From: Janthinobacterium lividum
Lineage (GTDB): Bacteria > Bacteroidota > Bacteroidia > Cytophagales > Hymenobacteraceae
Length of the DNA stretch: 64,000 nt
Direction: 5' to 3'
Assembly: GCA_050954845.1 (NCBI GenBank)
Contig: JBPBQK010000039.1
Location: 37,783-101,782, forward strand
Shown here: positions 9,650 to 55,536 of the stretch, one piece after another
How the letters are laid out: each line of letters opens with the position of its first letter
How positions within the stretch are numbered: position 1 is the first letter of the stretch
Program-made: the position numbers and the translations under genes
Notes under the pieces: model-generated
Told to the model about the DNA's origin: nothing
The model's database searches: none
What the model saw: the letters and a program-made list of their open reading frames with translations, nothing else

Positions 9650-11146
9650 TTGACTAAGCGCACATTTCTTGGCATGATGAGCTGGCTGCTGGTGCTGGCG
9701 GGGCTGCTGGGCCGCCCCGTGGCCGTGTGGGCGCAGCAGCCCGCCCCGGCCCCCGAAGCCGAGCTGGTGCCCGGCCCGGCCGTGGTGCCGCTCACGGCCA
9801 CCTACACGCTGGGGGTGCGGCTGCGCGGGGCCACCATCACGAGCCACTCCGACTTTCCCGAAATCGAAGGCTTCCGCAAGGCGGGCCTTGCTACTACCAC
9901 TGCTACCCGGCTCGTGGGCGGCCGCCGCACCGTGGCCGAGCTCACGCTGACCCAGCGCTACGCGCCCTACACCGAGGGCACGTACCAGGTGCCGCCCTTC
10001 GACCTCACCGTGAATGGCCAGGTGCTGCACAGCCCCGGCGGCCGGGTGCGGGTGGCCGCCGCCCCCGCCGCTGCCCCCCTCAGCGATGCGGCTGTAGCGC
10101 CGGGCCAGGGCATCGGCTCGCTCGACCAGCTGCTGGGCAAGCCCAAGCCCAAGTATTTCTACGAGCCGGCCGACCACGCTTCGCTGGCCCTCGAAGCCAA
10201 CCAACGCAGCGTGTATGTAGGTGAGGGCGTGCGCGTAAACTTATATCTATACGTGCAGCCCGCTGACCAGGCGGTACTCAATTTCTACAATTTTACCGAG
10301 CAGCTGCCCGAGCTAGTGCAGCAACTGCGCCAGCCCACCGCCTGGGAGGTGCCCGCCCCCGAAGCCGCCGGCGTGCCCGACACCGTGCGCCGCGGCGGGG
10401 TGGTATACCTGCGCTTTCGGCTGGCCGAGAATACCTATTATCCGCTCACCAGTCAGGATTTACGCTTCCCGCCCCTGGCCCTCATCATGACCAAGTACAA
10501 GCTCCTGAAAGCGCCGCAGCCAGGCGAGGATGCCAAGCTGGCCATGTACAAAACCTACACGGCACCCGCCCTGCGCGTGGCCGTGCGGCCCCTGCCGCCG
10601 CGGCCCGGCGCACCGGCCACCAGCGTGCCAGTGGGGCATTACGTGCTGCGCGAGGGCATCAGCGGCACCCGGTTTCAAACCGGCGAGGCCTTTGTGTACA
10701 CCTTTGGGGTGGAGGGCGTGGGCAATTCCACCGCGCTGGTGCTGCCCGCTCTACGCTCGACGCCGCAGCTAGAGGTGTACGGCCCCGATATCCGGGAAGA
10801 GAAGCTACCCGATGGCACGCCCCGCAAGAGTTTTCGCTACCGGCTGGTGCCGCACCAGCCCGGCGCGCTGCCGCTCGATAGCCTGTTTCAGCTGGTGTAT
10901 TTCGACCCTACCACCGCCCGCTACGATACCTTGCGCTCAGAGCTGCAGCCCGAGGTGCAAGGCCTGGCACGCGCCGTGGCCACCGCCCGCCCCGACGATG
11001 ACCCCTTCTACGGCCCCGCCCTAGCCAGTGCCGATACCCGCCTGCAGCCCTTTGATGTGTACCAGGAGGTGCGCCGCTACGCCGGCTGGCTGGTGGGCGC
11101 GCTCCTAGTAGTGGCCGCCGTAGGTTGGTGGCGCGCAGGTGGTTAA
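9650..11146 (+). CDS. BatD-family-like protein
   Basis: Signal peptide, beta-rich Ig-like segments, 'VYVGEGVRV', 'YFDPTTARY', C-terminal TM helix. Confidence 0.75.
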   Translation: MTKRTFLGMMSWLLVLAGLLGRPVAVWAQQPAPAPEAELVPGPAVVPLTATYTLGVRLRGATITSHSDFPEIEGFRKAGLATTTATRLVGGRRTVAELTLTQRYAPYTEGTYQVPPFDLTVNGQVLHSPGGRVRVAAAPAAAPLSDAAVAPGQGIGSLDQLLGKPKPKYFYEPADHASLALEANQRSVYVGEGVRVNLYLYVQPADQAVLNFYNFTEQLPELVQQLRQPTAWEVPAPEAAGVPDTVRRGGVVYLRFRLAENTYYPLTSQDLRFPPLALIMTKYKLLKAPQPGEDAKLAMYKTYTAPALRVAVRPLPPRPGAPATSVPVGHYVLREGISGTRFQTGEAFVYTFGVEGVGNSTALVLPALRSTPQLEVYGPDIREEKLPDGTPRKSFRYRLVPHQPGALPLDSLFQLVYFDPTTARYDTLRSELQPEVQGLARAVATARPDDDPFYGPALASADTRLQPFDVYQEVRRYAGWLVGALLVVAAVGWWRAGG

Positions 11147-11147
11147 G

Positions 11148-11250
11148 CAATAAGCAATTAACAATGAGCAATGAGCAGACCAAATAGGCAGTCTGCTCAT
11201 TGAACCTACTCATTGTCACCTGCTCATTGCTCATTGATAATTGCTTATTG
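11148..11250. repeat. 31-bp inverted repeat built from caatgag-type heptamers
   Basis: Arms 11148-11178 and 11220-11250 differ at one position. Confidence 0.85.
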
Positions 11251-11255
11251 AACTT

Positions 11256-12332
11256 ATGAATTCTTTCGGAACGCTTTTTCGCATCACCACCTTCGGCGAG
11301 TCGCACGGGGTGGGTATTGGGGTAATTATTGACGGCTGCCCGGCCGGCGTGCCGCTCGACGTGGCCGAGATACAAGCGGCGCTGGATAGGCGGCGGCCGG
11401 GGCAATCGGACCTGACGACGCCCCGCAAGGAGGCCGACACGGTGCTGGTGCAGTCGGGCACGTTTGAGGGCTACACCACGGGCACGCCCATCAGCCTGTT
11501 TATTGCCAATGCCGACCAGCGCTCGGGTGACTACTCGCACATTGCCCACGCCTACCGCCCCAGCCACGCCGACTACACTTACGATGCTAAGTACGGCCGC
11601 CGCGACTACCGCGGCGGCGGCCGCAGCTCGGCCCGCGAAACCGCCGCCCGCGTGGCCGCCGGGGCCGTGGCCGCCCGCCTGCTATCCCACTTCGGGGTCG
11701 AGGTAAAAGCCTACGTATCAGCCGTGGGCGAGGTCGAACTAATTGAAAGCTACGAAAACCTGGACCTAAGCCTTATCGAGAGCAACCCCGTGCGTTGCCC
11801 CGACCCCACGGCGGCCGCCCTTATGGAAGAGCGCATTCGGGCGGCGCAGGCCGCGCACGATACCGTGGGTGGCGTTATCACGGGTGTGGCCACGGGCTTG
11901 CCGACCGGCCTGGGCGAGCCGGTTTTCGATAAGTTACCCGCCGTGCTGGGCCACGCTCTGCTAAGTATTAATGCTGTGAAAGGCTTCGAGTTCGGCTCGG
12001 GCTTTGAGGGCACCAAGCTGCCCGGCTCGGTGCACAACGACGAGTTTTACACCGACGAAGCTGGCCGCGTGCGCACGCGCACCAACCACAGCGGCGGCAG
12101 CCAGGGCGGCATCAGCAACGGGCAAGACGTGTATTTCCGCGTTGCTTTCAAGCCCGTGGCCACGCTCTTGCAGCGCCAGCAAACGATTAATGACCAGGGC
12201 GAAAGCATCGAGCTAGTGGGCCGGGGCCGCCACGATGCCTGCGTGCTGCCCCGCGCCGTGCCCATCGTGGAGGCCATGACGCAGCTGGTACTGGCCGATT
12301 TATTGCTGCGGGCGCGAGCCAACAAGCTTTAG
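11256..12332 (+). CDS. aroC: chorismate synthase
   Basis: [38 protein letters not shown] 11256. Confidence 0.97.
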
Positions 12333-16500: not shown

Positions 16501-19485
16501 CTATACAGTGGTGCGCAGTTTGGGCGCATCGCCAGCGGCGGCGCTGATATCCTCGCCAGCGGCGAGGCGCTCGCGCTCCTCTTGCTTGCCGTAGGTGTCC
16601 AGGATGATGGGCGTGGCAATGAACAGCGACGAGTACGTGCCGAAGATGATACCAATCATCATGGCAAACGAGAACGAGCGCAGCGTTTCGCCGCCGAAGA
16701 TGTAAAGCACCAGCACTACCAGGAACACCGTGGTGAACGTAATCATGGTGCGCGAGAAGGTCGAGTTCAAGGCTGGGTTCACCACTTGGGCGAACGTTAG
16801 CTTGGGGTCGTTGCGCAGGTATTCGCGGATACGGTCGTAGATAACCACCGTGTCATTCATTGAGAAGCCGATGATGGAGAGCACGGCCGCCACGAAAATC
16901 TGGTCCATCTCATAGTTCAGGCCAAAGGCGCGGGCGATGGGGTAGGAGGCGATAACCAGCAGCGCATCGTGGAAAAGCGCGATAACGGCGGCCATCGAGT
17001 ACTGCCACCGCTCGAAGCGGAACAGCACGTAGATGAAGATGCCGAGCAGCGTGAGGCCCAGCGACAGCACCGAAGTGCGCTTGATGTCATCGGCAATGGT
17101 AGCGCCCACTTTCGAAGCCGATGGTACGGTAGGAGCGGCCGAAGCAAACTTCTGGAGGCCGGCATCGAGCGCCTGGCGCACCTGCTTGTCGGCCGCCACG
17201 CTTTCATCATCAGCTAGGTAGCCCGTGGTCACGCGCAGGCGAGTGGGGCTGCCGTACTGCTTCACTTCGAGACCCGCGCCCTTAAAGGCGGGGCGCAGCT
17301 GGTCAGCCACTTCCGAAGAAACCATAGGCTTGTTGAAGTCAACCACATAGGCGCGGCCACCCTGGAAGTCAACGCCCAAGTTCGGGCCGCCTTGCAGGTA
17401 CATCAGCACGAAGCCGATAACGATAACAATAGTCGAGAAGGCGTAGGCAATTTTGCGCTTGCCCACGATGTCGAAGTTGACGTTCTGGAACAAATTGCGC
17501 GAGAGGAAGGTCGAGAACGTGATGGCGCTCGTCGTTTTGCCTTTAATCAAGGCCTCAATGATGAGGCGCGACACATACACGGCCGACAGGAACGACGTCA
17601 ACACGCCAATGCCCAAGGTCACGGCGAAGCTCTGCACCGGACCCGTGCCGAAAAAGCCCAGGATGATGGCGATGAGCATAGTCGTCACGTTCGAGTCAAA
17701 GATGGCCGAGAAAGCGCGCGAGTAGCCCGCGTTCACGGCATCGTGCAGCGAGAGGCCGTGGTCCAGTTCTTCACGAATACGCTCGAAAATAAGCACGTTC
17801 GCATCTACCGATGAGGCAATTACCAGAATTAAACCAGCGATGCCGGGCAGCGTGAGAGCCGTGCCGAATTGCGCTAGCACGCCCAAAATCAGGAACATGT
17901 TGAAGAGCAGGGCAGCATCGGCTACGAGGCCGGCGCGGCCGTAGTACACGGTCATAAACACCATGATAATCAGCAAGCCAGCCAGCGACGAGTACAGGCC
18001 TTGGTTGATGGCTTCGCGACCGAGCGACGGGCCCACTACGGCTTCTTCCACGATGCGGGTCGGGGCAGGCAGTTTACCAGCCTTCAGCACCTGGGCCAAA
18101 TCCTGGGCTTCTTCGATGCTGAAGCTACCCGAAATCTGGGTGTTGCCGCCCGAGATTTCGCTTTGCACTACGGGGTCCGAATACACCACGTCGTCGAGCA
18201 CCACGGCTACTTGCTTGCCGATGTTGGCGGCCGTCATGCGCTGCCATTTCTTCGAGCCGTTGGGGTTCATGCTCATGCTCACCTCGGGGCGGCCGCCTTG
18301 GTCGTAGTCCATGCGGGCATCGCTCACTACCTCGCCGGTGAGGGGCGCGGCGGTCATGCCAGTGCGGTCTTTCTTAACGGCAATCAGGCGGATAAACGAC
18401 TGTTTGTTCAGCTCCTTCGGCTTGGCATCGTAGAGCAGCACCAGGTTGGGGGGCAGCGTGGCGCGGGCTTCGTCCGAGCGCAGCAATTGGTTCACGCGGG
18501 CGGTGTCGCGCAGGTTCACACCCAGCGAGCCGGGCATGGTGAAGTAGCGCGTGAGGGCACCACCCTGCAACGCTTTAGCCGAGTCGGTTTTAGCCTGGCC
18601 GGCCGGGGTTTTCTTGGCCAACTGCGAAGCCAGCGACGACGAATCGCCAGCGGCGGCCATAGCAGCCTTCGACGTATCGGCAGCGGGCGTAGCAGCTACG
18701 GCCTTCTCCTTATCCGTCAGTGTTTTGTCGAGTTGAATCAAATAAGGTGCGAACTCCTGTTGGCTCCATACTTCGTAAAACTCCAGCTTGGCCTGGCCTT
18801 GCAATAGTTTGCGCACGCGGTCGGGGTTGTCCACGCCGGGCAGCTCTACCTGAATGCGGCCAGTGCCCTTCACGCGCTGAATGTTAGGCTGGTTTACGCC
18901 GAATTTATCCACGCGCTTGCGTAGGATGTCAAACGAACGGTCGATAGCGTCTTCCTCTTCTTTGTTGATGGCGGCCAGCACCTTGCTGTCAGAAGTCGAG
19001 CGGTCGATTTTGCGGTCTTTGTTCACCGAGTTGGCAAACAGCGGGGCCAACTGCTTGCCGGGCGCTACCTCTTGGTAAGCCTGGTAAAATAGCGAGGTGA
19101 AGGCCGTGCCCGAGTTGGTTTTCTGGCGCTCCTGGGCCAAAGCCAGGGCCTTGTTGAAGCTGGCATCTTTGGAGTTGCCCGCCATGGCGCGCACAATTTC
19201 TACCGGCGAAACTTCCAGGGTTACGTGCATGCCGCCTTTCAGGTCAAGGCCGAGGCCGAGCTCGTTCTGGCGCACATCGCGGTAGGTGTAGGGGCCGAAT
19301 ACCGGAGCACGCCACACCGAATCGAGGTAGTGCTGGCGCTGGGTTTCGTTGAGCTTGCCGTTGTGGGTGGCGTAATCCACCGCTTTCTGTTGCACCCCGC
19401 GCGAGACGTAGGTGAAAAACAGGAAGTACGCGCAGAGCACCGAAACCACAACGGTGAGCGCGATAATTATTCCTTTATTACGCAT
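16501..19485 (-). CDS. secDF: fused protein translocase subunit SecDF
   Basis: LGLDLKGG, RVDKFGV, VGPSLG, DANVLIFERIREE, GVDFQGG, GFSMNDTVVIYDRIRE. Confidence 0.97.
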   Translation of the reverse strand: MRNKGIIIALTVVVSVLCAYFLFFTYVSRGVQQKAVDYATHNGKLNETQRQHYLDSVWRAPVFGPYTYRDVRQNELGLGLDLKGGMHVTLEVSPVEIVRAMAGNSKDASFNKALALAQERQKTNSGTAFTSLFYQAYQEVAPGKQLAPLFANSVNKDRKIDRSTSDSKVLAAINKEEEDAIDRSFDILRKRVDKFGVNQPNIQRVKGTGRIQVELPGVDNPDRVRKLLQGQAKLEFYEVWSQQEFAPYLIQLDKTLTDKEKAVAATPAADTSKAAMAAAGDSSSLASQLAKKTPAGQAKTDSAKALQGGALTRYFTMPGSLGVNLRDTARVNQLLRSDEARATLPPNLVLLYDAKPKELNKQSFIRLIAVKKDRTGMTAAPLTGEVVSDARMDYDQGGRPEVSMSMNPNGSKKWQRMTAANIGKQVAVVLDDVVYSDPVVQSEISGGNTQISGSFSIEEAQDLAQVLKAGKLPAPTRIVEEAVVGPSLGREAINQGLYSSLAGLLIIMVFMTVYYGRAGLVADAALLFNMFLILGVLAQFGTALTLPGIAGLILVIASSVDANVLIFERIREELDHGLSLHDAVNAGYSRAFSAIFDSNVTTMLIAIILGFFGTGPVQSFAVTLGIGVLTSFLSAVYVSRLIIEALIKGKTTSAITFSTFLSRNLFQNVNFDIVGKRKIAYAFSTIVIVIGFVLMYLQGGPNLGVDFQGGRAYVVDFNKPMVSSEVADQLRPAFKGAGLEVKQYGSPTRLRVTTGYLADDESVAADKQVRQALDAGLQKFASAAPTVPSASKVGATIADDIKRTSVLSLGLTLLGIFIYVLFRFERWQYSMAAVIALFHDALLVIASYPIARAFGLNYEMDQIFVAAVLSIIGFSMNDTVVIYDRIREYLRNDPKLTFAQVVNPALNSTFSRTMITFTTVFLVVLVLYIFGGETLRSFSFAMMIGIIFGTYSSLFIATPIILDTYGKQEERERLAAGEDISAAAGDAPKLRTTV

Positions 19486-19616
19486 TGCGTAGAAGTATGA
19501 GTTATGAATTAAAAAGTGTGAATTGGCGGAATACGAATGAGTTAGCTATAGAATTAAAGATGTGAACTGGCATTAACAGCCAATTCCTAACGCATAATTC
19601 CTAACTCATAATTTTT

Positions 19617-20000
19617 CTAGGGTGCCTGCGGCGACACCGCCGCGCTCAGCAACCGCTGGCGGCATAGCAAGGCCACAAACGTGCTGGCCGCTACCAGCGG
19701 CACCGCTGCAATGGCCCGGCGCACCAAACGCGGCAGCCAGGTAGTGGGCAGCGTGCCCGGTAGCCAGCCCAGCGCAAAGGCTGGGGCCACGTAGGAGCCC
19801 AGCGGCGAGGCCGCCTCCAGCACTACTTTTTGCTTGATAACCGTGGCGCGGGGCGCGGCACTCAGCCGCGACTGCGCGGGCGAACCCAGTGGGCGCAATA
19901 AGCTCACTGTCCGGCCATTCAGGCCCAGCAGCAGCAGCACGGGCAGGGCCACTAAGGCTAGCCGCAAAAACTGTCTAAACTGGGAAATTGAATTGTACAT
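19617..20000 (-). CDS. exported small protein upstream of secDF (candidate arrest/leader peptide)
   Basis: N-terminal basic and hydrophobic segment; ends SPQAP-stop; lies between a consensus promoter and secDF. Confidence 0.7.
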   Translation of the reverse strand: MYNSISQFRQFLRLALVALPVLLLLGLNGRTVSLLRPLGSPAQSRLSAAPRATVIKQKVVLEAASPLGSYVAPAFALGWLPGTLPTTWLPRLVRRAIAAVPLVAASTFVALLCRQRLLSAAVSPQAP

Positions 20001-20016
20001 ACGCCGGGCAGGGCTA

Positions 20017-20024
20017 CAAATATA
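20017..20024 (-). promoter_or_regulatory. Bacteroidota sigma-A -7 element for the leader ORF and secDF
   Basis: TATATTTG on the minus strand (TAnnTTTG), with TTG about 21 nt upstream. Confidence 0.65.
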
Positions 20025-20060
20025 CCTATTTCAAGTGGCAACTGCCAAGCTACCTAGGTT

Positions 20061-20528
20061 TCAGCTATCGCGCAGCCCCTCAAAAGCATATTGGGCCCCG
20101 CTCCAAAACTCATCGAGCGCAATGAGGCGGGGCTTAAAAAACGAAATCAGCGCCGGCCAGTCGTCGCGGCTGAACAGGTTGACGGGCTGCATCTCGGCAT
20201 AAATGCGGCTCAGGGGCAGCCCGTTGGCGTCGGTGGCGTGCTGCTCCCAGCGCCAGGGCTCGCCCAGCGCTTCGTGCAGCAGGTTCTTCAGCTCCAGAAA
20301 TTGCTCGAAGAACAACTCGCGCACGCCCGCATCGGGGTGCGTGAGCTCGATGGCGATGCTGGCGCGGCGGTTGTCGGCCTGCATGCGGAAATACACGTGC
20401 TTGAGGCCGGTTTTGTAATTAATCCAGTTGGTGGGGCCGCCTTCAGCCGAGGGCACCGGGGCCATGTATTGGCCAAAGGTGGTCCAGAAGGCTTGGCGGA
20501 GCTGGGTGGCTTCGGCTTTGCTGTACAC
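20061..20528 (-). CDS. DUF4268-like protein
   Basis: 'MYSKAEATQLRQAFWTTFGQYM...NWINYKTGLK' pattern. Confidence 0.75.
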   Translation of the reverse strand: MYSKAEATQLRQAFWTTFGQYMAPVPSAEGGPTNWINYKTGLKHVYFRMQADNRRASIAIELTHPDAGVRELFFEQFLELKNLLHEALGEPWRWEQHATDANGLPLSRIYAEMQPVNLFSRDDWPALISFFKPRLIALDEFWSGAQYAFEGLRDS

Positions 20529-20544
20529 TTACTTACCTAACGTT

Positions 20545-21147
20545 TTAGCGCCGTAGCGGGCGCAAATCAAATTGAAAGCCGGGTAGTACCGGCTCGCCGC
20601 TCAGCTCCTGGTCGTAGCCCTGCACAGTTTCGGCGGGCTGGCCGGCGCGGTACACGTAGGCCGTTTCAGCCTCCACATCGAGCAAGAAGCCGAGCTGCAT
20701 ACCGTTGGCCAAGTAGGCCTCCATTTTGGCTTGTAGCAGTTGAACGTCATCCGAAGGCGATTTCACTTCCACCATAAACTCGGGGCACACCGGCGGAAAT
20801 TTGCGCCGCTGCTCGGGCGTGAGCTGCTCCCACTTAGCTTCGCTCAGCCACGCCGCATCGGGCGAGCGTACGGAGTTATCGGGCAGCTTAAAGCCAGCCG
20901 AAGATTCATACACGTGACCCATGCGGGTCCGTCGGTTCCAGTGCATCAACTGGTAATTAGTCTCGGAGCAAGACTCACTCGATTCGGAACCTGCGGGCGG
21001 CATAACAGTGATGTCTAGTTGGGGAGTGCGCTCCAAACTCAGCGAAGGATTAGCCTGGCACAGCTCAAAAAACTCATCGTCGCTGAGCCGCGCCAGTATC
21101 GCGCCGTGCAACACCGGCAACTCCGGAAACTCGTAGGTGGGCCGCAT
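20545..21147 (-). CDS. Uma2-family (PD-(D/E)XK) endonuclease-like protein
   Basis: 'RSPDAAW', 'PEFMVEVKSPSD', 'KMEAYLANG', 'LPGF'. Confidence 0.9.
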   Translation of the reverse strand: MRPTYEFPELPVLHGAILARLSDDEFFELCQANPSLSLERTPQLDITVMPPAGSESSESCSETNYQLMHWNRRTRMGHVYESSAGFKLPDNSVRSPDAAWLSEAKWEQLTPEQRRKFPPVCPEFMVEVKSPSDDVQLLQAKMEAYLANGMQLGFLLDVEAETAYVYRAGQPAETVQGYDQELSGEPVLPGFQFDLRPLRR

Positions 21148-21203
21148 AGTGATAAATCAAGTAAGACACTAGCCAATATACGGCCGGCCGTTCGCTTTAG
21201 AAG

Positions 21204-21830
21204 TTATATCTGCTCGGCCACCTTGCACTTCAAAAAGCCCGTGAGTACGGCCAGCCCATTCTCAAAATGCCGGTTGTTGGGGATGATGATGTCGGCGTCG
21301 TCCTTGAAGGGCTGGATGTACTTCTCGTAGGTCGGGGCCACGTGGTTGGTGTAGCGGTACAGCACATCGTCGAGGCCGTAGCCGCGCTCGTCGCGGTCGC
21401 GGATGATGCGGCGGTGCAGCTTCACATGTTCTTGGGCGTCGATGTAGACTTTGAGGTCGAGTAGCTTCGCGATTTCCTCAAAGTAGAATACAAAAATGCC
21501 TTCGACCACCACAATGGGCGCGGGCCGGAACACCAGGTCCTGCGGCACCATGTTGGGGTTGTTGAAGGTGTACTCTTTGCGGCGCACCTCGAGGCCTTGG
21601 CGCAGGCTGCTCACATCGGCGGCGTAGGCGGCCGAATCGATGCTGCCGGGTAGGTCGAAGTTTTCAAACCCTTGGGAATCACGCTGCTGCTGCTCGCGTG
21701 GGTGGTAGTAGTTGTCCTGCGAGATGAGGCAGATATCGCGCTCGGGAAACTCCGACAGCAGGCGCTTGAGAAACGTAGTTTTGCCGGAAGCGCTGCCGCC
21801 CGTGATGCCGACGAGAAAAGGGTGTTGCAT
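21204..21830 (-). CDS. udk: uridine kinase
   Basis: GITGGSASGKT, SQDNYY, NFDLP, VVEGIF, RRIIRD..ERG. ATG 21830. Confidence 0.93.
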   Translation of the reverse strand: MQHPFLVGITGGSASGKTTFLKRLLSEFPERDICLISQDNYYHPREQQQRDSQGFENFDLPGSIDSAAYAADVSSLRQGLEVRRKEYTFNNPNMVPQDLVFRPAPIVVVEGIFVFYFEEIAKLLDLKVYIDAQEHVKLHRRIIRDRDERGYGLDDVLYRYTNHVAPTYEKYIQPFKDDADIIIPNNRHFENGLAVLTGFLKCKVAEQI

Positions 21831-24909: not shown

Positions 24910-24954
24910 CTTTTTAGGAGCTGTTAGCTCTTGGCTGCTAGCTGTTAGCTTTTT

Positions 24955-24990
24955 AAAACTCCTTTCGGTACCTCCGAAAGGAGTTTTTTT
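24955..24990 (+). terminator. intrinsic terminator after rpmE
   Basis: aaaactcctttcgg-tacct-ccgaaaggagttttttt. Confidence 0.8.
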
Positions 24991-25083
24991 GTGCACTAGC
25001 CCGGCTAGCTGAGTGTAATTTTGGGAGAAAGATTCAGCAAGTTACCAGCTATCAGCTGTTAGCTAATAGCTTACAAAAGAATA

Positions 25084-46209: not shown

Positions 46210-46632
46210 ATGGCTGTTTATCCCGAATACATGGTAGCCCCCATCCGCCAGGATTTGGTGGAGGCTGGCTTCGAGCAATTGATGTCGCCGCAGGAAGTGG
46301 ACGCCGCCCTGGCTGCTACCGAAGGCACCGTACTAGTAGCCGTGAACTCGGTGTGCGGTTGCGCGGCTGGCAAGGCCCGCCCGGCCCTCAAGCTGGCCCT
46401 GGCCAGCGCTGACAAGAAGCCCACGAAACTCGTAACTGTGTTCGCCGGCATGGAAACCGACGCTGTGGCCAAAATGCGTGAGCACATGCTGCCGTATCCG
46501 CCCTCGTCTCCCTGCATCGGCCTGTTTAAGGACGGCGAGCTAGTGCACATGATTGAGCGCTATCACATCGAAGGCTCCGACATGATGCGCATTGTGAACA
46601 ACCTGCAAGGCGCGTTCGAAGAATATTGCTAA
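46210..46632 (+). CDS. BrxA/BrxB-family bacilliredoxin
   Basis: VNSVCGCAAGKARP (CGC motif), TVFAG, PPSSP, IER..IEG. Confidence 0.92.
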   Translation: MAVYPEYMVAPIRQDLVEAGFEQLMSPQEVDAALAATEGTVLVAVNSVCGCAAGKARPALKLALASADKKPTKLVTVFAGMETDAVAKMREHMLPYPPSSPCIGLFKDGELVHMIERYHIEGSDMMRIVNNLQGAFEEYC

Positions 46633-46853
46633 CCGCAGAGTCAAACGGATTAAACAGATTTAACGGATACGCCCGCCTGCGGCGGGCTGACTAAGCGAAT
46701 GTTTCGCTGGCCGTTACGCTGTAAACACTGCCAACAAAGAAAGGCCGCCTAAACAGGCGGCCTTTTTTTGTTTTACACCTGCACATTCGAATAGTCAGCC
46801 CGCCGCAGGCGGGCGTATCCGTTAAATCTGTTTAATCCGTTTGACTCTGCGGT
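46632..46853. repeat. MITE/REPIN-like element, copy 1 (62-bp perfect inverted arms)
   Basis: Arms 46632-46693 and 46792-46853; the interior contains a terminator hairpin at 46740-46769. Confidence 0.9.
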
Positions 46854-55068: not shown

Positions 55069-55348
55069 GAGTTTCCTGCTTGCGCTGCTGATATTTTCGC
55101 TCCTTGTACGCTATTTGCTGCCGGTGGTGCTGCGCGCAGTGCTCGGTAGCCTTGTGCGCCAGCAGGTGCGGAAGGCCCAGGAAGGCGGGTTTTATGCACC
55201 TACTAGTGGCCAGCAGCGGGCCTATACCCCACCGGCCGCCGCTCCCGGCCAGGTGCGCGTCGATTTCGTGCCGCCCAAAACCGCTAAGGTTGAGCAGAAG
55301 CCCGAATTTCGGGGTGGCGAGTATGTAGATTATGAAGAGGTCAAATAA
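55067..55348 (+). CDS. DUF4834-like small membrane protein
   Basis: N-terminal TM segment; C-terminal 'GGEYVDYEEVK'. Confidence 0.85.
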   Translation: MSFLLALLIFSLLVRYLLPVVLRAVLGSLVRQQVRKAQEGGFYAPTSGQQRAYTPPAAAPGQVRVDFVPPKTAKVEQKPEFRGGEYVDYEEVK

Positions 55349-55536
55349 CCGCAGATTCAAACGGATTAAACAGATTTAACGGATACGCCCGCCTGCGGCG
55401 GGCTGACTACTCGGGCGCAGAGCGGCCTTCGGCCAGCTTTTAAAGGAGCAGGCGAAGCCACTCCTACGTCCAAATAGTCAGCCCGCCGCAGGCGGGCGTA
55501 TCCGTTAAATCTGTTTAATCCGTTTGAATCTGCGGT
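55348..55536. repeat. MITE/REPIN-like element, copy 2
   Basis: Arms 55348-55409 and 55475-55536; same arms as at 46.6 kb, different interior. Confidence 0.9.

Follow-up and report, generated by a model that had tools for sequence, protein, structure and literature searches.

Organization of the secDF locus

The DNA stretch analysed here (the window) comprises 64,000 nucleotides (nt) of an assembly filed under Janthinobacterium lividum, with a GTDB lineage in the Hymenobacteraceae (GenBank GCA_050954845.1, contig JBPBQK010000039.1, positions 37,783 to 101,782 of the forward strand). The system under study is secDF, the gene of the fused SecD-SecF protein, together with the short leader open reading frame (ORF) and the intergenic hairpin that precede it. 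Reading of the minus strand gives the order promoter, leader ORF, AT-rich gap of 131 nt and secDF, with the following features (coordinates of the window):

20017-20048, minus strand: promoter, with TTGGCA at 20048-20043, an 18-nt spacer and TATATTTG at 20024-20017
19617-20000, minus strand: leader ORF of 127 residues plus TAG, ATG at 20000; candidate arrest peptide of the uDF_NAP-stop type, QAP variant
19920-19964, minus strand: N-terminal hydrophobic core, residues 13-27, RLALVALPVLLLLGL, with two Arg before the core
19812-19841, minus strand: mid-peptide motif VIKQKVVLEA, residues 54-63
19620-19667, minus strand: putative arrest module, last 16 residues, CRQRLLSAAVSPQAP
19617-19619, minus strand: leader stop codon TAG, where a stall is presumed to occur with the stop in the A site, on the model of the tested NAP-stop peptide
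19579-19613, minus strand: hairpin 5' arm, G-rich, with the words GAGTTAG and GAATTAT; contains the 19596-19610 core
19493-19527, minus strand: hairpin 3' arm, C-rich; contains the 19496-19510 core; 8-11 nt separate its end from the secDF AUG
16501-19485, minus strand: secDF, fused SecD-SecF of 994 residues, ATG at 19485

The initial annotation of this locus, made from the letters alone, had described a TAnnTTTG promoter at 20017-20024 ahead of a 127-residue ORF with a signal-like N-terminus, ending in SAAVSPQAP-stop 131 nt before secDF, and all of these elements were recovered where it had placed them. The identity of secDF rests on Pfam matches to SecD_SecF_C (2.2e-77), SecDF_P1_head (2e-31), SecD_1st (5.6e-19) and Sec_GG. 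The sequence TATATTTG fits TAnnTTTG, the -7 box of Bacteroidota, and the promoter scores 10 of 12 matches in a sigma-70-like scan; its position implies a leader 5' untranslated region of only ~10 nt.

The same promoter type is found throughout the genus. TAnnTTTG lies upstream of the chosen start of the upstream ORF (uORF) at 37/37 Hymenobacter loci, the distance being 16-20 nt in 35, and occurs in none of the 38 Hymenobacter gaps between the uORF and secDF, so that an internal secDF promoter was rejected; one weak sigma-70-like match (9/12) within the hairpin 3' arm was treated as chance. No terminator-like site was called on the minus strand between leader and secDF and no U run follows the stem, on which grounds an intrinsic terminator or attenuator in the gap was rejected as well. 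Because the uORF promoter is conserved, the gaps are free of TAnnTTTG and no terminator stands between the two genes, secDF is most likely transcribed only together with the leader. A scan of 18500-21500 against Rfam at E <= 1 gave no match.

Conservation and selection of the leader peptide

A six-frame search recovered the leader over its full length, with no stop interrupting the frame, from 36/36 genomes of the genus and from 0/24 genomes that represent other families of the order. A profile built from 37 copies matched 251/251 Hymenobacteraceae genomes, representing 8/8 genera, and at every locus inspected (38 from Hymenobacter and 5 from other genera) the leader stood directly upstream of secDF, which was recognised downstream of the Hymenobacter leaders by its start MRNKG... 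Column entropy is highest at the third codon position (1.32), followed by the first (0.88) and the second (0.69), and the GC content of the leader is 0.77 at the third codon position (GC3), 0.66 at the first (GC1) and 0.54 at the second (GC2). Residues L117, L118, P124, A126 and P127 are invariant in the 37 Hymenobacter sequences and are each encoded by 3-6 synonymous codons, the terminal P127 being coded by 4 synonymous codons across 37/37 sequences. These comparisons show a real gene which, judged by its pattern of substitution, is translated, selected at the peptide level and conserved family-wide ahead of secDF.

The hydrophobic core has a Kyte-Doolittle mean of 2.39 over 15 residues and the first 13 residues carry a net charge of +2; on hydropathy, by which the localisation signal was judged, the N-terminus looks like a signal peptide or a signal anchor. 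R13, L25, L27 and N28 are invariant within the genus. The mid-peptide motif keeps V54 and V59 without exception, and E62 and A63 almost so, across genera too. With the ribosome at the stop codon this motif, in its general form VVKQKVxLEAT, would lie outside the ribosome tunnel, where it could act in the release of an arrest, or it could reflect a function of the peptide itself. No Pfam family, the YajC profile (PF02699) included, matched the leader at E <= 0.1, and its close homologues in public records are 'hypothetical proteins' of Hymenobacter spp., of 121-127 residues and likewise free of Pfam domains.

All 38 Hymenobacter leaders end in RLLxxxxSP(Q/H)AP-stop, 107-224 nt ahead of secDF, with Gln (32/37) or His (5/37) at position -3. 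Their stop codons are TAG at 27 loci, TAA at 11 and TGA at none, for a genome usage of 40%, 47% and 13%, respectively. A rule by which the stop would be specific for release factor 1 finds no support, TGA being present in other genera (L040, L072) and the Hymenobacter loci not being independent. At -5 (19620-19634 and the orthologous codons, L001-L038), Ser is encoded by TCG in 34/34 Ser-bearing leaders, for a genome usage of 34%, and the rare codons GCT and GCA (Ala, -2) and CCT (Pro, -1) are overused relative to the genome. These codon and stop preferences at the leader tail may be a matter of phylogenetic inertia. Additional copies were seen in two genomes: one Hymenobacter genome (G006) carries two leader-secDF pairs (L021, L032), and a genome of another genus of the family (G062) carries a second, PNAP-ending leader paralogue (L045) with no secDF after it.

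The C-terminal tail and the published arrest peptides

Fujiwara, Tsuji, Yoshida, Takada and Chiba (2024, Nat Commun 15:2711, PMC10987492) scanned ~30,000 genomes for ORFs ahead of secA, secDF and yidC. Their uDF_NAP-stop type (396 sequences) brings together six clusters of secDF-upstream ORFs from Bacteroidota with a localisation signal at the N-terminus and a Pro-stop at the C-terminus (PMC10987492). The clusters were brought together because they share a terminal Pro, and were listed according to the final tripeptide (PMC10987492); since the family was assembled from terminal-Pro clusters, NAP is its commonest tail and not a strict criterion. The member tested is a 125-residue peptide of Echinicola vietnamensis, for which peptidyl-tRNA accumulates in vitro only with the stop codon present, stalling is weakened by N123A (-3) and P125A (-1), and the toeprint corresponds to a stop codon in the A site (PMC10987492). 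Regulation of the downstream gene was tested solely for an enterobacterial leader of the RAPP type (PMC10987492).

The window leader resembles the uDF_NAP-stop ORFs in its place right before a same-strand secDF, its length (~110-127 residues), its N-terminal signal as judged by hydropathy and its xAP-stop tail with a terminal Pro, in a host which the names of the close homologues (Hymenobacter spp.) and the TAnnTTTG type of promoter assign to the Bacteroidota. It ends in Gln-Ala-Pro and lacks the literal Asn-Ala-Pro terminus; unlike the tested member, it has Gln at -3 (His in some species) instead of Asn. The relation to NAP-ending leaders passes through the sister genera. Five other genera of the Hymenobacteraceae were sampled; the homologues of four of them end in SPNAP, IPNAP or QPNAP-stop, 106-193 nt before secDF, and that of the fifth ends in APQAP-stop, 164 nt before secDF. 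The Hymenobacter profile retrieves the PNAP-ending leaders ahead of secDF in these genera with E = 4e-6 to 2e-15 per genome. An alignment of the ORFs ahead of secDF for a conserved C-terminal xAP or QAP, proposed as a check in the initial annotation, comes out in its favour, the tail being kept in 38/38 Hymenobacter leaders and as PNAP or PQAP in the sister genera.

The same tails were recovered on a larger scale. Searched against 1.84 billion representative proteins, the profile matched just 59 clusters, with the tails PNAP (28), PQAP (13), PHAP (2), AQAP (2) and a few xRAP or NGP (one PNGP); 49 of the 59 clusters end in Pro, the remaining 10 being either gene calls with a truncation or a frameshift or non-homologous hits. 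In other families of the Cytophagales, ORFs of 111-155 residues precede secDF and end in QVNAP, QVHGP, SPNAP, AINAP, RANAP, QAQAP, GQAP, AKAP or SPQAP, with Q, H or K at -3 in several families. Since QAP tails precede secDF in these other families too, the QAP tail is a recurrent natural variant and no peculiarity of Hymenobacter. The QAP-stop variant of the initial annotation is real in this sense, and it does not found a new class.

Across families, the tails share the pattern (F/Y/L)(K/R)x(L)(L/F)xxx(I/L)xx(N/Q)AP-stop. Profile-profile comparison with leaders from other families of the Cytophagales aligned the last 16 residues and nothing else (E = 0.015, probability 2.9%), and no whole-length homology with these leaders was found. 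From such comparisons, the uDF_NAP-stop 'family' is best described as a shared module and architecture rather than as a demonstrable whole-length homology group. Taken together, the conservation, the signal-like N-terminus and the selection on the tail give strong comparative support to the claim that an export-monitoring arrest peptide precedes secDF. The reading of the leader as an arrest peptide is supported by its sequence relatives, and it would belong to the published type and not to a new motif class.

The predicted system can be placed among the known ones. SecM and VemP stall during elongation, inside their ORF, on a helix that masks the Shine-Dalgarno site. As in secM-secA and vemP-secD2F2, an exported-looking leader with a C-terminal arrest module, predicted here, stands before a Sec gene; unlike in SecM and VemP, to which the window leader has no sequence similarity, the stall would come at termination, no Shine-Dalgarno site is involved and the helix lies almost wholly beyond the footprint of the ribosome. 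TnaC and the SsrA tagging of Pro-stop proteins are examples of stalling at termination in E. coli, TnaC requiring tryptophan and acting through Rho. With both of these, and with the uA_NSP-stop leaders that occur in Sphingobacteriaceae upstream of secA (PMC10987492), the window leader would have in common that the P site holds the terminal Pro and the A site a stop codon. A terminal Pro followed by a stop slows release-factor-dependent hydrolysis, the residues at -3 and -5 having a modulating effect (PMC10987492). The differences are that the gene downstream of uA_NSP-stop is secA, and that TnaC follows a different regulatory logic.

The intergenic hairpin and its repeat class

The gap between leader and secDF contains an inverted repeat whose arms, 19610-19596 (TATGAGTTAGGAATT) and 19510-19496 (AATTCATAACTCATA), can form a 15-bp helix that includes a single G/A mismatch. 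The 5' arm of this core begins at the 7th nt past the stop and the 3' arm covers -11 to -25 of the secDF AUG, in full agreement with the initial annotation. The stem is longer than the core, an inner helix adding to the long-arm stem, and the 5' arm is a tandem 14-mer for which Tandem Repeats Finder gives a period of 14 (2 x 7) and a score of 57. Paired with each other, the first 45 and the last 45 nt of the gap give a duplex of -28.1 kcal/mol (z = -5.1 relative to shuffled arms), and the whole leader folds at -32.8 kcal/mol (z = -2.3). The pairing of the hairpin exceeds chance.

A genome-wide scan of the assembly to which the window belongs yielded ~80 AT-rich palindromes with arms made of tandem 7- or 8-nt words, the G-rich arm coming first in 68 of 80. 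Their word families include GAATTAAAAATTAAAAATG, TAATGGTTAATGG, CAATGAGCAATGAG, GAATGAGTGAATGAGT and CATTTAACA, and examples lie at C39:48926-49032, C25:35756-35857 and C62:19992-20099. The words GAATTAT, GAGTTAT and GAATTAG of the secDF leader recur in several other palindromes, and the caution in the initial annotation that its repeat words also occur in other intergenic regions was well founded. With its tandem 7-nt AT-rich arms, the G-rich arm first, its intergenic position and its multiple copies, the secDF hairpin has the characters of a dispersed heptamer-word palindrome. Like the repetitive extragenic palindromic (REP) and bacterial interspersed mosaic element (BIME)-like palindromes and the other heptamer hairpins of Hymenobacter, it fills a stop-to-start gap and has many copies with related words.

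This placement is widespread. Crude gene calls gave 1343 gaps of 60-260 nt between co-directional genes, of which 46 hold a palindrome; in 36 of these 46 it lies <=12 nt from the stop of the gene before it and <=25 nt from the start of the gene after it, the start-side distances in this survey being biased by the start-codon rule used. In the window itself, the gap before aroC (11143-11255, from a TAA stop to the ATG at 11256) contains a heptamer palindrome with TAAGCAA and CAATGAG words and z = -10.6; at the orthologous aroC junction a strong stem is found in 2/26 Hymenobacter species, the closest relative having a gap of 26 nt. Because most palindrome gaps and the aroC junction share the stop-to-AUG layout, the arm placement is the norm for this repeat class and no special property of secDF.

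At 24919-25070, arrays of AGCTGTT-type heptamers flank a clean hairpin resembling an intrinsic terminator (aaaactcctttcggtacctccgaaaggagttttttt).

Modelled reach of a stalled ribosome

In toeprint geometry, the leading edge of the ribosome lies at ~+15 from the first base of the P site. With the stop codon in the A site this corresponds to ~19608, so that a ribosome stalled at the end of the leader would cover ~3 nt of the 15-nt arm. The 5' arm had been proposed to lie inside the footprint of such a ribosome; this holds marginally, for these ~3 nt. A thermodynamic model was used in which the footprint is imposed as unpaired and the ensemble opening energy of positions -18 to +12 of secDF is calculated. 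The opening energy at the secDF start of the window was 8.0 kcal/mol for the free messenger and 7.1 kcal/mol for the stalled state, a negligible change, and by this model a stalled ribosome does not remodel a start-occluding structure in the window. The same model gave a drop of 3-14.5 kcal/mol in 10 of 38 Hymenobacter leaders, all from one clade (L007-L019) in which the base of the stem takes in or borders on the stop codon and the nucleotides beside the AUG, and no effect of the footprint in the other 28.

A strong stem between the stop end and the AUG end (z <= -3) is present in 15/38 Hymenobacter leaders, built of heptamer words that differ between species, and most of these stems run from stop to AUG. 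The closest relatives of the window leader (L002, L004) have no terminal stem, and the AT-rich leaders examined outside the genus, in other genera and other families, show no significant structure. Since these relatives lack it, the stem does not count among the conserved features of the leader-secDF unit.

A difference between the strands was also observed. In 18 heptamer-type secDF leaders, 57 G.U pairs were counted in the sense RNA vs 20 in the antisense RNA, and the sense RNA was more stable in 15 of 18. Among 45 other co-directional palindromes of the genome there was no bias (G.U pairs 60 vs 67, sense more stable in 21/45), and the leader of the window was itself reversed, the antisense RNA being more stable by 4.5 kcal/mol. 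The secDF-leader stems thereby differ from the genome-wide class in their greater persistence across species (15/38 vs 2/26 at the control junction) and in their sense G.U bias, neither of which extends to the copy in the window; both comparisons involve related species, a single control locus and differing detection thresholds. A transcription-linked mutation bias could also mimic the sense G.U asymmetry. The asymmetry was used instead of RNAalifold, the arm words not being reliably alignable across species; furthermore, covariation in a DNA palindrome would not separate a function of the RNA from maintenance at the DNA level.

These data bear on the RNA switch of the initial annotation, according to which a stalled ribosome melts the hairpin that hides the secDF initiation region, with the result that secDF translation rises when export is poor. 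The switch has in its favour a window stem that is strong and extends from 7 nt after the stop to 10 nt before the AUG, the recurrence of strong stems in 15/38 leaders with wholly different word sequences, the modelled response of 10/38 leaders to a parked ribosome, a sense G.U and stability bias that the genome-wide class lacks, and an aroC control junction that retains a strong stem in just 2/26 species. It is opposed in the window by a footprint that reaches ~3 bp, for a modelled change of -1.0 kcal/mol, by a hairpin that is more stable as antisense RNA (dE +4.5), and by the missing terminal stem in the closest relatives. Furthermore, either such a dependence or any significant structure is lacking in 28/38 Hymenobacter leaders and in every leader examined from the other genera and families, and the stem comes from a dispersed class whose members reach from stop to start at numerous unrelated junctions. 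Bacteroidota generally do without Shine-Dalgarno sites, which leaves no defined element to mask. With a generic palindrome, absent from most Hymenobacter clades and opened over ~3 bp, the switch claim is not upheld for the window genome: we regard this mechanism as unlikely there and the hairpin as a poor switch candidate, an RNA-switch role being plausible only in the sister clade.

In that sister clade, a selfish or neutral palindrome that arrived between the leader stop and the secDF start may have been domesticated as an arrest-responsive RNA switch, a step not clearly taken in the window genome. We put this forward tentatively, on the strength of the opening-energy model and of the sense G.U bias of the stems. 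If it is true, a dispersed repeat would supply the output device of a termination-stalling leader, and it would constitute the first testable mechanism by which NAP-stop stalling reaches secDF.

Alternative roles of the leader

Small membrane proteins such as YajC are encoded beside secDF in other bacteria, and the leader could by comparison be an ordinary small membrane or periplasmic accessory subunit of SecDF, with no programmed arrest. The conservation across genera of the mid-motif VVKQKVxLEAT and of an AWLP motif, both beyond the tail, would fit such a role, as would the public annotation, which is merely 'hypothetical protein'. An identity as YajC analogue was rejected, the canonical YajC of this genome (PF02699, 83.9 bits) being encoded elsewhere, on another contig. 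Moreover, the last 16 residues are the most conserved part of the leader, right up to the stop codon, and every Hymenobacter sequence has the terminal Ala-Pro, which is near-universal in the family (one cluster has PNGP). The same tail pattern is carried by pre-secDF leaders that are otherwise unrelated, which a ribosome-directed module would fit better, and a tail of this kind stalls ribosomes (PMC10987492). An accessory subunit without arrest is in our judgement quite improbable.

The weakest alternative, a chance open frame in a plain secDF 5' untranslated region, could call on the long spurious ORFs and the many overlapping frames of a genome of ~60% GC, and it is effectively refuted by a frame that is open and alignable end to end in 251/251 genomes, by the codon-level selection seen in the variable third position, the synonymous variation at key residues and the order GC3 > GC1 > GC2, and by the conserved promoter 16-20 nt upstream of the start.

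Other features of the window

The same-strand genes upstream of the unit (20061-21147) encode a DUF4268 protein (3.2e-36) and a putative endonuclease of the Uma2 family (3.7e-35), apparently with no link to the secDF unit. An element present in two copies (46632-46853 and 55348-55536) has inverted arms of ~60 bp, which read ccgcagaKtcaaacggattaaacagatttaacggatacgcccgcctgcggcgggctgacta..., and unrelated interiors.

A proposed stop-codon stall ahead of secDF

The explanation that we favour, and hold to be probable, is that of a two-cistron unit of promoter, leader and secDF, in which the leader is an arrest peptide of the NAP-stop type with Gln at -3 and the hairpin is a copy of a dispersed repeat. 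Several points weigh against it: (i) homology to the tested Echinicola peptide is not demonstrable, so that membership of the type is argued from architecture and motif; (ii) the tested member has Asn at -3, where N123A weakened stalling, and Gln or His at this position might stall less or not at all; (iii) the mid-motif VVKQKVxLEAT is as conserved as the tail, and the peptide could have a function of its own; and (iv) the hairpin looks switch-like in one Hymenobacter clade, and its dismissal for the window genome may be too strong.

Within this two-cistron explanation, the course of events can be sketched by analogy. As in the tested family member, the ribosome would come to a halt at termination, its P site holding Pro-tRNA and its A site UAG. 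Pulling of the nascent chain through the Sec machinery would then relieve the stall, as in SecM and VemP; the duration of the stall would report export capacity and feed back on secDF, a longer-lasting one being expected to raise its expression. We infer stalling at the QAP tail, its release by export and its effect on secDF from these parallels. The hairpin would moderately lower the accessibility of the secDF start and would hardly be affected by a ribosome halted on the stop codon. The coupling of the stall to secDF, if any, most likely takes another route, such as protection of the mRNA, Rho polarity or processing; the long untranslated gap might, for instance, be shielded from Rho or nucleases.

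On this analogy, the Hymenobacteraceae would carry the stop-codon-stalling type of secretion-monitor leader before secDF. The natural variation at -3 (N, Q, H, also K or R) falls on a position sensitive to mutagenesis and helps to define the arrest motif. The leader peptide, conserved family-wide, and the hairpin, a volatile dispersed repeat, are two separable things, and the Hymenobacter clades with and without a stop-to-start stem offer a natural experiment on how a stall may be transmitted without a Shine-Dalgarno site.

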